This document shows, piece after piece, positions 60,117 through 61,647 of a stretch of DNA of 64,000 nt (positions are counted from its first letter, which is position 1; the number at the start of each line of letters is the position of its first letter). The DNA lies in the NCBI GenBank assembly GCA_963663405.2, contig CAXXSM010000073.1:32001-96000 (forward strand), in the 5' to 3' direction. The notes beneath the pieces were generated by a model, which ran no database searches, had not been told where the DNA came from, and was given only the letters and a program-made list of their open reading frames with translations. Position numbers and translations under genes: made by a program. The DNA is from a bacterium. Its GTDB lineage: Bacteria > Hinthialibacterota > Hinthialibacteria > Hinthialibacterales > Hinthialibacteraceae.

Positions 60117-60539
60117 CTATAAGTCATCGCGTTTCATTAACACAGAAAAACCTTCTTGCTCGAAATGGTGGTCATTTGTCAGCGCTTCCGCGATTGACTC
60201 GGATTCCATGACATTCATGGAAATGCAGTCTTGCAGGCTGTATTGTTTGTCTTTTCACGCTTCATAACGAGTTAATCCCTTTAGAAAAGAATCACGGGAT
60301 TGCGGAATGACTTTTATATTTGGATTCGAAAGAATCGCACGCACAGTCTTGACAGCGCGGTGACGTAATTCGGGTCCACACTTAGATAGCGCCGCAAGAA
60401 ATTCAGTCAACACTTCATCCGTTGTCACAAGCCATACGTGTCCCAATTGTTCGCGCGCTCTTTTCGCTGGCTCATTCCATTGGTCTCTCGGTAATAGAAT
60501 TGCAATCCAATATACAGTATCGACAAAAACGGTTTTCAT
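60117..60539 (-). pseudogene. VapC/PIN toxin with an internal in-frame TGA at 60255-60257
   Basis: VFVDT.YW, TTDEVLTEF; the same frame continues after the stop as KDKQYSLQDCISM...ALTNDHHFEQEGF to TAG at 60117. Confidence 0.85.
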
Positions 60540-61450
60540 GCGTCCGTCTTTCCATATAAGTAATAATCGAGTTTATCTGTAAGGTCTTGTGGGAGGTTGT
60601 CCCACTCTTCATCGGGGACATCTTTAAATATGTCCGTAATCACATCCTCAATGGCTGGCGTGCTTGTGTCGAAAACTGGCTCATCATTTCGAACGAGATA
60701 AAGATGGTTAACGCTGATGATGCGTTTTAACGTCCCGTGCAGATCCAGTTCACCACGGCCTTTTATTCTTAGGCGGACTTCCTTATGATCTTTCAGCGCT
60801 GTCGTTACTTCGGATTCTTCTTCTTCCGAGAACGAAACTTGCACACTCGTCCCTTCATCTAACCAAATCTGAAATTTCCTATTCCGCACATCGGCTTCCA
60901 GAACATGTCCTATGATATCTACTTCATCCTCATATGGCAGTTGGATTAAAGTGGATAATCGTTCCCGCTCGCATGTAGTTACACGAGTGGCGCTTTTCCC
61001 TGGCGGTGTGAATTCCAACTCCTCATCCCCGGAAAGACCCTGTCCCCACCGCGCGTATTCGGGCAGGAGTTCCTTTGGGAATTCATTTGGCAGTGGCTTA
61101 TTCTCGTGAACCGCTGTAAATGTACGATGGACTAAATCGATCGCCTCATTGGCCTCAACCGGTTCTGGTTCCCAGAATTCGCGTTGCGCAGGTTCCTCAA
61201 TGTATACTTCGAGTGGAACAGTGGCGCTGCCTTCCTCGATCTTGCGGAGGCATAGGCGTGTGCGGTCTTCGAAATGTTTTGGCAATCGATCCCGGTTAGG
61301 ATTTGCCTTTCGCCACAGGGCTTTAGCGGTTTCAGCGACCATCTTCTGAAATTGTTGAAGTTCGTTAAGGGCAGTAAGATCAAGGGCATGGTCACGGAAA
61401 CGATCGCCTTTGAAATGAAGCCTTACAACTTCCTTCCATAGTCCAGGCAT
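60536..61450 (-). CDS. Unknown ~270-aa domain fused to a C-terminal VapB-like antitoxin motif
   Basis: AGGAG RBS before MPGLWK; ends DVPDEEWDNLPQDLTDKLDYYLYG; ATGA overlap with the PIN gene. Confidence 0.7.
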   Translation of the reverse strand: MPGLWKEVVRLHFKGDRFRDHALDLTALNELQQFQKMVAETAKALWRKANPNRDRLPKHFEDRTRLCLRKIEEGSATVPLEVYIEEPAQREFWEPEPVEANEAIDLVHRTFTAVHENKPLPNEFPKELLPEYARWGQGLSGDEELEFTPPGKSATRVTTCERERLSTLIQLPYEDEVDIIGHVLEADVRNRKFQIWLDEGTSVQVSFSEEEESEVTTALKDHKEVRLRIKGRGELDLHGTLKRIISVNHLYLVRNDEPVFDTSTPAIEDVITDIFKDVPDEEWDNLPQDLTDKLDYYLYGKTDA

Positions 61451-61647
61451 CGCTTTATCTCCTAACAATCTGATTCTCAAGGTTCAGGCTGTTATCAGGA
61501 AAAACTGAAATCATGTTTTTCTTTTTACTTTTATAATAATTCTAAAATGGAAAAACAGAATGCTATTTATCTATCATAGAAAACCTGTTTCTACAAGTGA
61601 GAGTTCTAATAATTCTAATTGACCGCTTCAATAGATAGTCTATTGAT

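Follow-up and report, generated by a model that had tools for sequence, protein, structure and literature searches.

The locus discussed here raises the question of what an antitoxin-like protein of 304 residues, the product of what we call gene A, contributes when it stands directly in front of a PIN-domain (VapC-like) toxin gene. The window, by which we mean the whole 64,000-nucleotide stretch of DNA that was analysed, carries the pair on its minus strand, with the stop codon of A and the start codon of the PIN gene sharing the letters ATGA (plus strand 'tcat' at 60536-60539), as the original prediction had described; the coordinates of the features are collected in Table 1. The product of A ends, by translation, in ...IEDVITDIFKDVPDEEWDNLPQDLTDKLDYYLYGKTDA, and its ATG start is confirmed by the N-terminus M-x-G-x-W-K-E-V conserved in the homologue alignment, the alternative on reading the open reading frame being a TTG at 61480 that would give 314 aa. 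The span first assigned to the pair, ending at 61470, runs 20 nt past this ATG; the statements made about the sequence within it stood. The pair was also said to lie alone between unrelated genes, and so it does: a sulfatase and an FAD oxidoreductase are found on one side and ABC-transporter genes on the other, no defence neighbour was found among the flanking genes, and around the cassette there were neither flanking direct repeats or insertion scars nor a GC anomaly.

Table 1. Features of the A-PIN cassette in the window.
Feature	Positions	Strand	Details	Basis
Antitoxin-like gene A	60536..61450	minus	304 aa from ATG; stop TGA 60536-60538; three modules plus linker	ORF, translation, homologues
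N-domain	60941..61450	minus	residues 1-170; alpha/beta	AF2 model
OB-fold domain	60686..60940	minus	residues 171-255	VIA-align, Foldseek
Linker and acidic C-terminal tail	60539..60685	minus	residues 256-304; pI 4.1; ending LPQDLTDKLDYYLYG	
PIN (VapC-like) toxin gene	60117..60539	minus	140 codons	translation, PF01850
In-frame TGA at PIN codon 95	60255..60257	minus	replaces Arg codon	
RBS motif GGAG	61459..61462	minus	8 nt before the ATG of A	read from sequence
AT-rich upstream intergenic region, presumed promoter/operator	61463..61647	minus	GC 0.35	

The PIN frame extends from 60539 to 60120, is closed by a stop at 60117-60119, and is interrupted once on the way. Read through the interruption with an X, the protein passes the PF01850 model (E 8.6e-7, 30 bits, cut-off 23.6); the 94-aa stump, at 18.2 bits, fails the same cut-off. 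The window protein is 72% identical to the intact PIN protein of the related locus L001, and its nearest solved relative by sequence, VapC20 (5wzf), is matched at an E of only 0.029. The position of codon 95 holds Arg in 56/56 intact homologues (CGA 22, CGC 15, CGG 9, CGT 6, AGG 3, AGA 1), and 43 homologues share four invariant acidic residues, D7, E46, D103, and D122, of which the last two are missing from the TGA-shortened product. The TGA is present in run X1, the probable source, on a single contig at depth 4.27, and the contigs of run X2, which come from another study and a related strain, have a G at +60257 that gives CGA. A single change from CGA to TGA appears, from these sequences, to have inactivated the toxin of the window, the alternative being a low-coverage error. 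Decay of the PIN gene beside an intact A was seen in 6/62 complete loci. For this genome alone the cassette is of little weight, as an isolated copy with an interrupted toxin gene.

That the 304-aa architecture belongs to a gene family is apparent from the homologue survey, in which 448 relatives of A were found. The best 120, which were listed, measure 268-374 aa and cover 88-100% of the query; among these 120, all but two (P0043 and P0113) are 301-317 aa long at 55-77% identity, and the predicted fusion of a large domain to a tail is thereby seen to be conserved at ~304 aa. Counted as representatives, that is, clusters at 50% identity, the relatives number 1406, 671, and 166 at E<=1e-3, 1e-10, and 1e-30, respectively, and the C-termini of the best 150 representatives comprise an LPxDL-type tail in 133 by pattern and a further 7 by eye, other endings in 3, and fragment-like sequences in 7. 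A PIN gene, the neighbour for which a survey of homologues had been proposed, lies directly downstream of A in 76/76 loci with at least 100 nt of downstream sequence (82 loci in total), the overlap being 4 nt in 70/76 and 1 nt in 6/76. Mean pairwise identity amounts to 0.64 for the N-domain, 0.57 for the OB-fold domain, 0.68 for the tail, and 0.64 for the PIN protein; the head, as we call the N-domain and the OB-fold domain together, is no more variable than the other parts, which is not the pattern that an arms race against phage proteins would suggest. Head and PIN distances are strongly correlated (r 0.82, 903 pairs), which shared descent explains as well. An assembly chimera had been named at the outset as a possible refutation, and a chance fusion of an unrelated gene with a small vapB gene would be a further way in which the 304-aa reading frame could prove to be an artefact; beyond the low contig depth of 4.27 we found no support for either. 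Against both stand the recurrence of the full-length architecture in independent contigs, which number in the hundreds and span several sources and phyla, and an independent run that covers parts of both genes, so that the probability is vanishingly small. The A-PIN pair is conserved and is not an assembly chimera.

The C-terminal tail is what ties A to ordinary antitoxins. It had been called typical of the small antitoxins of this VapC subfamily, and it does occur there: among 29 subfamily PIN genes with an upstream open reading frame, drawn from 35 genomes of the same phylum, a tail of the D/H-x-Y-[LIA]-[YH]-G type ends 21 of the upstream partners, 13 of which are 71-101 aa long. The N-terminal part of these 71-101-aa antitoxins we take, by eye, to be AbrB-like. 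The same tail is carried by unrelated heads (L004, L005), and it is the common element across partners that are headless, that have the OB-fold domain only, that have the N-domain and the OB-fold domain, or that bear an unrelated head; a 371-aa partner at L089 was not counted as a separate architecture, its start being probably over-called. In the structural model the tail has helices at residues 267-277, 280-284, and 294-299 with a pLDDT of 62-75. On sequence grounds we infer that the tail is probably the PIN-binding, neutralising element.

Between the tail and the N-domain lies a beta-rich segment that had been suspected of being OB-like, and the comparison of its model with solved structures bears this out. 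VIA-align places residues 172-255 on the single-stranded DNA-binding protein (SSB) chain 4dam_A at Z 8.8 (rmsd 4.0, 80 aligned residues), nine chains from bacterial SSBs and RPA reach a Z of at least 8 (8.0-8.8, residues 172-256), and the Foldseek matches are likewise to OB folds (E ~3e-3, probability 1.0). The SSB and RPA scores are to be read as evidence of a common fold only, the five-stranded beta-barrel of OB domains. Close homologues retain F193 and W196, and partners of 143-167 aa that consist of the OB-fold domain and the tail, without the N-domain, accompany PIN genes of the same subfamily (L003, L090, L091).

The N-domain is modelled with confidence by AF2 (pLDDT 91.6, pTM 0.87) and has no match among solved structures, the best Foldseek result in the PDB being at E 0.11 and the best in the wide VIA search at Z 4.9; among its best fold rows, which are weak, there are RNA binders of RRM-, RAMP-, and ferredoxin-like type (Z 3.4-4.9), below the level of kinship. 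Matches in BFVD are to uncharacterised phage proteins only (best E 4.4e-6). A BFVD protein named DUF6575 resembles the domain structurally (E 2.4e-3, TMq 0.52) without a Pfam match to PF20215 (DUF6575), and the Atlas feature match to DUF6575, at 0.80, lies under the level that counts; PF20215 had no match in the 35 phylum genomes or in 14 control genomes, and the Atlas feature search with the N-domain reached a top score of 0.86 with hypothetical proteins throughout, both of which are uninformative. Conservation falls for the most part on G, P, F, A, and L, with R17, E30, S75, and R162 in addition, and the conservation analysis found no conserved residue set of a catalytic type. The sole PDB profile match for A1 and A2, 9hnh, was rejected as spurious, being a designed solenoid repeat matched through a repeated 'PLPEEF' segment. 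The observation that A has no recognisable HTH, RHH, or AbrB N-terminus holds, since no Pfam or NCBIfam family matches the 304-aa protein at E<=1. With a pI of 5.6 for the N-domain and 5.3 for the OB-fold domain, the head is acidic, which is unusual for a nucleic-acid binder.

The head is also found away from PIN genes. Residues 6-256 of A match positions 4-256 of 375 in PDC-M32A (E 3.5e-50), a component of PDC-M32, which is a two-gene phage defence candidate of PADLOC-DB v2; the PDC set is that of Payne et al. (2024; 10.1101/2024.01.29.577857). True members of PDC-M32A match model positions 5-372, and A has no such whole-length match. At three plasmid loci the PDC-M32A gene overlaps the gene for PDC-M32B, a product of ~140 aa that is unrelated to the PIN protein (hhalign probability 0.45%). 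Because the PIN partner has no PADLOC match, as searched with the proteins of the window and of L001, and because the C-terminus of PDC-M32A is replaced in A, the PADLOC models would not call the pair. The initial reservation that the pair might belong to an already described system is thus touched in respect of the head, which sits in a catalogued candidate, but the tail and the PIN partner differ. The head is further fused to an MNT-type antitoxin domain in six clusters (369-372 aa), in which the MNT domain resembles MNT genes adjoining DUF86/HepT genes on cyanobacterial plasmids; head fusions longer than 532 aa were not found, which is weak evidence. Judged from these arrangements, the head looks independent of toxin type.

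The proposal made at the outset, of a phage- or stress-sensing antitoxin fusion in a candidate abortive-infection pair, is supported in part. Sensing by the head is plausible, and its main rival is operator binding, on which the region upstream of A bears directly. In the window this region contains two 15-nt direct repeats and an 8-nt perfect palindrome; a site scan found no minus-strand sigma-70-like site upstream of A, the sole minus-strand site lying inside the gene at 60940-60912. When the best perfect inverted repeat in the 150 nt upstream of 74 loci was compared with shuffles, inverted repeats were not enriched (mean z 0.12; z>2 in 4/74 regions), and 8-mers shared by the upstream regions were rejected as an operator, being the coding end of the Mod methylase gene plus the RBS. 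These data can be set against the proposal that the pair is an ordinary type II addiction module, in which the head would be an unconventional operator-binding or oligomerisation domain that autoregulates the operon, and the module would stabilise host restriction-modification loci or islands without any phage sensing. DNA-binding domains of type II antitoxins are toxin-independent, shuffled N-terminal modules, a pattern that the head's own toxin-independent shuffling fits; the head moreover sits where the 71-101-aa partners have their N-terminal domain, a place that the OB-fold domain alone can fill, to judge from the 143-167-aa partners, and both the equal conservation of all parts of A-PIN and the decay of the PIN gene beside an intact A (6/62 complete loci), expected for selfish modules, are in keeping with it. 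However, the query has no known DNA-binding motif and none recurs consistently among 100 diverse members of the A family, the head is acidic and, at ~255 aa, large for an operator binder, the inverted repeats that an operator might have left are not enriched, and the head recurs in a family that was picked by its embedding in defence systems. We hold the addiction-module proposal to be possible, though rather unlikely.

The genomic surroundings of some of the relatives connect them with defence. A type III-like Mod methylase is present in the flanks of 18/82 loci, and in 19/77 loci the coding end of the Mod C-terminus immediately precedes A, either as part of a type III-like mod gene or as a copy of the final ~25-30 codons of such a gene; these 19/77 include the nearest relatives of the window copy. 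In a quick tree, the window A belongs to a clade of seven with L006-L009, L001, and L002 (98% SH-aLRT), and all six relatives stand beside a Mod methylase; an HMM of the Mod C-terminus found no coding scar of this kind upstream of the window A. Other loci have TIR, OLD, HEPN, Eco57I-type, or MqsA neighbours, and 13/24 long-flank loci have only housekeeping or uncharacterised ones, both as raw tallies. No copy of A-PIN was found in a phage collection, and neither A1 nor P0189, one of the head-MNT proteins, had a match among IMG/VR contigs. The tight placement of the cassette after mod genes would also suit a two-subunit nuclease rather than a true toxin-antitoxin pair, in which nuclease A, through its OB-fold domain and N-domain, targets or activates the PIN protein on nucleic acid alongside the neighbouring restriction-modification system. 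The likeness of the OB-fold domain to SSB- and RPA-type nucleic-acid binders, the RNA binders among the weak fold rows of the N-domain, and the correlation of head and PIN distances, for which shared descent suffices, lean the same way; but the N-domain matches lie under kinship level, plain small antitoxins of this PIN subfamily end in the same tail as A, the placement of A in front with a 4-nt overlap is the classic gene order of an antitoxin and its toxin, and decay of the toxin alone fits an inhibitor better than a co-factor. All told, a nuclease of this kind strikes us as improbable.

The reading that we prefer, to which we give roughly even odds (about 0.5), is that the cassette represents an uncharacterised and widespread VapBC-type family carried as cargo by defence loci, with a three-part antitoxin whose toxin-independent head is likely to sense, and with a dead toxin in the window. 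By its family, the PIN protein would be an RNase toxin; A would be the three-part antitoxin whose acidic tail binds and blocks it; and the head, which appears to recur with other neutralising ends and effectors in PDC-M32A with PDC-M32B and in the MNT fusions, would most likely set the timing of toxin release through an infection- or stress-linked ligand. The window cassette would then have come to lie outside its usual restriction-modification setting, with its antitoxin gene still intact and the toxin gene next to it dead. A bolder extension, which we regard as tentative and decidedly unlikely, makes the head a new and promiscuous, Panacea-like sensor of a single conserved cue of infection, for instance an intermediate of nucleic acid or a phage-altered host factor, with interchangeable C-terminal adaptors that release at least three unrelated effectors (PIN, PDC-M32B, and HepT), and with cassettes that are inserted and swapped where type III mod genes end (3'), the conserved segment coding for the Mod C-terminus being the site of recombination. 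If the head is regulatory, it would join Panacea as the second antitoxin domain to work with several families of toxin. The family also extends the candidate PDC-M32 to a much larger PIN-linked group that today's defence finders would overlook, is a further instance of cassettes behind a methylase-gene scar, and offers both a confidently modelled N-domain without a solved-fold match and a genetic handle, in that tail, OB-fold domain, and N-domain occur in a natural truncation series.

The comparison with known systems begins with VapBC type II toxin-antitoxin pairs, which A-PIN resembles in its PIN-domain toxin, the antitoxin gene coming first, the 4-nt overlap, and the acidic C-terminal tail, but A is ~3-4 times larger than VapBC antitoxins, lacks an RHH, AbrB, HTH, or Phd/YefM domain, and has the N-domain and the OB-fold domain where those antitoxins have their DNA-binding domain, while its PIN partner is distant from solved VapCs. 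Defence cassettes embedded in restriction-modification loci offer a parallel for the relatives that lie directly after mod, though not for the window copy, which has neither methylase nor scar; the 'guilt-by-embedding' approach of Payne et al. (2024; 10.1101/2024.01.29.577857), in the portion of the paper on which we draw, surveyed Hma, BREX, DISARM, and type I restriction-modification systems, and not type III. PDC-M32 is, like A-PIN, an overlapping two-gene cassette with a ~140-aa partner, and differs in that A has the VapB-like tail in place of the final ~120 positions of PDC-M32A and that the partner of A is a PIN protein, not PDC-M32B. MntA-HepT (MNT-HEPN) is linked to the family by the six clusters that carry the same head on an MNT domain, a domain that the window A does not have. 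There is also a likeness in organisation to PanA, in which, as in A, one globular antitoxin domain, Panacea (presumably DUF4065), is combined with varied short neutralising elements and varied toxins. The NetFlax study (Ernits et al. 2023, PMC10440598) attributes neutralisation to the appended element and proposes that the globular domain acts as a sensor. The likeness is one of organisation only, given that A has no Panacea Pfam match at E<=1; the head of A comprises two domains, one of them an OB fold, and has so far been met in three effector contexts, of which the HepT one is inferred.

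The cassette joins the genes of a modular protein and a VapC-like PIN protein, which are coupled in translation and conserved as a pair: the acidic tail of the large protein is common to small antitoxins, its head is common to other two-gene modules, and the cassette often lies behind mod genes, which encode type III-like restriction-modification methylases. The sequence observation of the original prediction at 60117..61470, namely the ORF, the ATGA overlap, and a PIN gene containing TGA, was borne out in every point (see the table), and we place the start of the large protein at the ATG because homologues keep the M-x-G-x-W-K-E-V N-terminus. 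The PIN frame with X at the TGA passes the Pfam PIN model (PF01850, E 8.6e-7; score 30 bits, cut-off 23.6), and the 94-aa stump fails it. The large protein has zero family matches in Pfam and NCBIfam at E<=1, in agreement with the claim that it has no recognisable DNA-binding N-terminus. As also predicted, the cassette lies alone among unrelated genes, with sulfatase and FAD oxidoreductase genes on one flank and two ABC-2-type permease genes plus an ABC ATPase gene on the other; neither a GC anomaly at the cassette nor repeats flanking it were found. In the AT-rich region upstream, TT(A/C)TAATAATTCTAA occurs twice at a spacing of 73 nt, and there is a perfect palindrome of 8 nt (TCAATAGA/TCTATTGA).

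Coordinates of features in the window and in loci (L-numbers) carrying related genes
Feature	Location	Strand	Remark
Large ORF	61450 to 60536	minus	304 aa from ATG
GGAG motif	8 nt 5' of ATG of large ORF	minus
Alternative TTG start of large ORF	10 codons upstream of ATG	minus
ATGA overlap	60536-60539	minus	stop of large ORF / start of PIN gene
PIN gene	to 60120; final stop 60117-60119	minus	140 codons; TGA at codon 95
TT(A/C) repeats	61531-61545; 61604-61618
Palindrome	61628-61646
Methylase genes	L006:1-1330; L016:353-2998; L079:233-2875
Mod scars upstream of gene	L030, L033, L045, L055, L065, L029, L039, L032
Loci with RM-to-DUF559 neighbours	L001, L002, L014, L015, L016, L025, L030, L033, L050, L053, L059
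Second PIN gene	L029:425-826
Proteins with a different head	L004:3284-4123; L005:3089-4123
Tandem PIN genes, L103	G028:C2:599692-603039		starts near 632, 1453, 2132
PDC-M32B	L117:5157-5576; L118:5121-5552; L119:5080-5502

The head consists of an N-domain (residues 1-170) and an OB fold (171-255). In the AF2 model of the full-length protein (pLDDT 80.7), residues 172-255 form the OB fold, with VIA-align giving Z 8.8 (rmsd 4.0, 80 aligned) to SSB 4dam_A and nine chains at Z>=8, every one an SSB, RPA, or OB protein, and with Foldseek giving OB matches at E about 3e-3, so that the beta-rich segment is indeed OB-like. The N-domain, modelled alone with 100 diverse sequences (pLDDT 91.6, pTM 0.87), found no convincing relative among solved structures (Foldseek best E 0.11), and its best Z in an all-against-representatives structure search was 4.9, below the level reached by chance arrangements. 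Among predicted viral structures it is matched by three uncharacterised phage proteins (best E 4.4e-6, TMq 0.58); one, of 381 aa, belongs to Leptospira phage LE1, and another (E 2.4e-3) bears the name DUF6575, a domain that Vassallo et al. 2022 (PMC9519451) list among those newly tied to defence. This link is a lead only, since the large protein does not match the DUF6575 Pfam model. Across the 100 diverse members, the conserved positions are chiefly G, P, F, A, and L, plus R17, E30, S75, and R162, and no catalytic-looking residue set stands out. With a pI of 4.1, the final ~49 residues are strongly acidic; the model shows short helices there, at intermediate confidence.

The large ORF is real and conserved. 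A word-indexed search yielded 448 relatives among 1387 candidates, the best 120 of which, query included, measure 268-374 aa; all of these save P0043 and P0113 are 301-317 aa long, with 55-77% identity and 88-100% query coverage. An exhaustive search returned 1406 cluster representatives at E<=1e-3, 671 at E<=1e-10, and 166 at E<=1e-30, and the majority of the best 150 are of ~300 aa and match end to end. An LPxDL-type tail was detected by pattern in 133 of these 150, while the remaining 17 comprise six with variant tails (judged by eye), one in which a Cys-rich extension follows the tail (P0139), three with other C-termini (P0189, P0267, and P0271), and seven that are fragment-like. By source name, members come from Planctomycetota, Deltaproteobacteria, and Nitrospirota. 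We fetched 82 loci with a relative (2 genomic, 80 metagenomic), and once six with <100 nt downstream are left out, a PIN gene lies directly 3' in 76 of 76; the two genes overlap by 4 nt in 70 loci (64 ATGA, 4 GTGA, 2 TTGA) and by 1 nt in 6, and the PIN genes are complete and open in 56 loci, reach the contig end in 14, and are interrupted in 6. The predicted fusion and PIN adjacency thus both hold across homologues, the ~300-aa architecture being widespread. Among individual members, the Cys-rich part of P0139 (405 aa) adds about 100 residues, in P0258 (453 aa) a low-complexity insert (about 150 aa) separates N-domain and OB fold, and the short contig of L029 carries a further PIN gene of the subfamily, 60% identical to that of L001, upstream of the cassette.

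Within the phylum of the window, a search at E<=1e-10 found PIN proteins of this subfamily in 16 of 35 genomes. Of the 29 ORFs that lie upstream of such PIN genes, 21 code for partners with a D/H-x-Y-[LIA]-[YH]-G type tail at the C-terminus. Thirteen of the 21 are only 71-101 aa long, which upholds the view that the tail is typical of small antitoxins of the same PIN subfamily; other partners join it to the OB fold alone (143-167 aa; L003, L090, L091), to N-domain plus OB fold (window, L088, L093), or to an unrelated head in proteins of 279-344 aa (L004, L005), a head with zero matches in Pfam and PADLOC. Because partners with differing heads share the tail, it is the tail that accompanies the toxin, and the N-terminal part can be exchanged; from this we infer that the tail is a putative neutralising element. 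The L004 and L005 proteins (279 and 344 aa) are gammaproteobacterial, have a wholly different head, overlap a same-subfamily PIN gene, and carry the tail as DVPDEEW..LPDDL..YLYG. L103 has three subfamily PIN genes in tandem within ~2 kb, of which two are each paired with a tail-bearing protein of 70-73 aa; the genome has 10 matches in total.

The TGA of the window PIN gene aligns with an Arg invariant in 56 of 56 intact homologues, most commonly encoded by CGA (22/56). Contigs from a second public run (another study, related strain) have G against the window's A at +60257, giving CGA on the coding strand, and the run that covers the whole stretch, probably the assembly source, shows TGA, with a contig depth of only 4.27. 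Because the related strain has CGA and the source TGA at this depth, the break appears to be one recent C-to-T substitution; it may also be an error due to low coverage. The stump is without D103 and D122, two acidic residues invariant across 43 PIN homologues, and the window copy is probably dead as well as isolated. Decay of the same kind occurs in six fetched loci (L011, L023, L037, L038, L048, and L072; 6/62 complete PIN regions), in which a stop or frameshift breaks the PIN gene and the upstream gene is intact.

The 8-mers shared upstream of the large gene are the final codons of the Mod methylase plus the RBS. The L001 methylase was found by tblastn in the flanks of 18 of the 82 loci; nine of these have its end immediately upstream, on the same strand, and in L001 and L002 its start is just downstream. 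An HMM of its last 32 residues, run against the translated 200 nt upstream at E<=0.01 with seeds included, matches 19 of 77 upstream regions, several without any remaining methylase gene, and does not match that of the window. The coding end preceding the cassette spans the last ~25-30 codons and finishes ...AVKI[IV]DDRGIESLKI[IM]EV. It is as if cassettes had been swapped in by recombination through the Mod C-terminal segment. A quick maximum-likelihood tree of 80 proteins requires 10 changes of the Mod-scar label, against a shuffled mean of 15.6 (0/500 shuffles as low). In this tree the window protein groups with L006-L009, L001, and L002; the seven-member clade has 98% SH-aLRT support, and its six other members all adjoin the methylase. 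In a Pfam survey of 111 flanking ORFs, by raw count, 11 of 24 loci, some mutually kin, have RM, TIR, OLD, HEPN, toxin-antitoxin, transposase, RadC, or DUF559 neighbours, the other 13 having housekeeping or unknown neighbours alone.

In the proposed working, the PIN protein would be an RNase toxin, the tail would block it, and the head would decide when it is freed. That the head senses a phage protein is one reading; however, it is conserved as much as the toxin, is acidic, and occupies the place of the N-terminal part of the small antitoxins, which by eye we take to be AbrB-like. These features speak against sensing of a phage protein and make an operator-binding or oligomerisation domain of an unconventional kind a serious competing reading; upstream, though, inverted repeats show no enrichment. 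The predicted sensor-antitoxin abortive-infection system is partly supported: the fusion, PIN adjacency, shared tail, and frequent mod-gene setting speak for it, and the isolated, probably dead window copy against it. The family merits bench study.

The head also occurs with other effectors. PADLOC models of PDC-M32A match residues 6-256 of the large protein at model positions 4-256 of 375 (E 3.5e-50), and true PDC-M32A genes, matching end to end, are found on three plasmids (Limnohabitans, Rhodococcus, and Rhizobium), each overlapping a downstream PDC-M32B gene (about 140 aa). Invariant in PDC-M32B are R18, H21, P22, K40, D41, S46, R49, S51, E81, H100, and D104. PDC-M32B matches no Pfam family, hhalign detects no relation to PIN (probability 0.45%), and the protein may be an unrecognised enzyme toxin. 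In a third architecture (six clusters, 369-372 aa) the head is fused to an MNT nucleotidyltransferase domain that resembles MNT genes adjoining DUF86/HepT genes on cyanobacterial plasmids. Payne et al. (bioRxiv 10.1101/2024.01.29.577857) count PDC-M32 among 145 untested candidates, derived from genes that lie within Hma, BREX, DISARM, and type I RM systems; a full-text literature search found the name in one paper, as a list entry. The window locus is a VapBC-type cassette with a PDC-M32A-like head: the head is common to both systems, whereas the partner is PDC-M32B in one and PIN in the other. The organisation of head and tail is paralleled by the multidomain PanA antitoxins, in which, according to PMC10440598, neutralisation of the toxin falls to appended elements, the globular Panacea domain being a proposed sensor.
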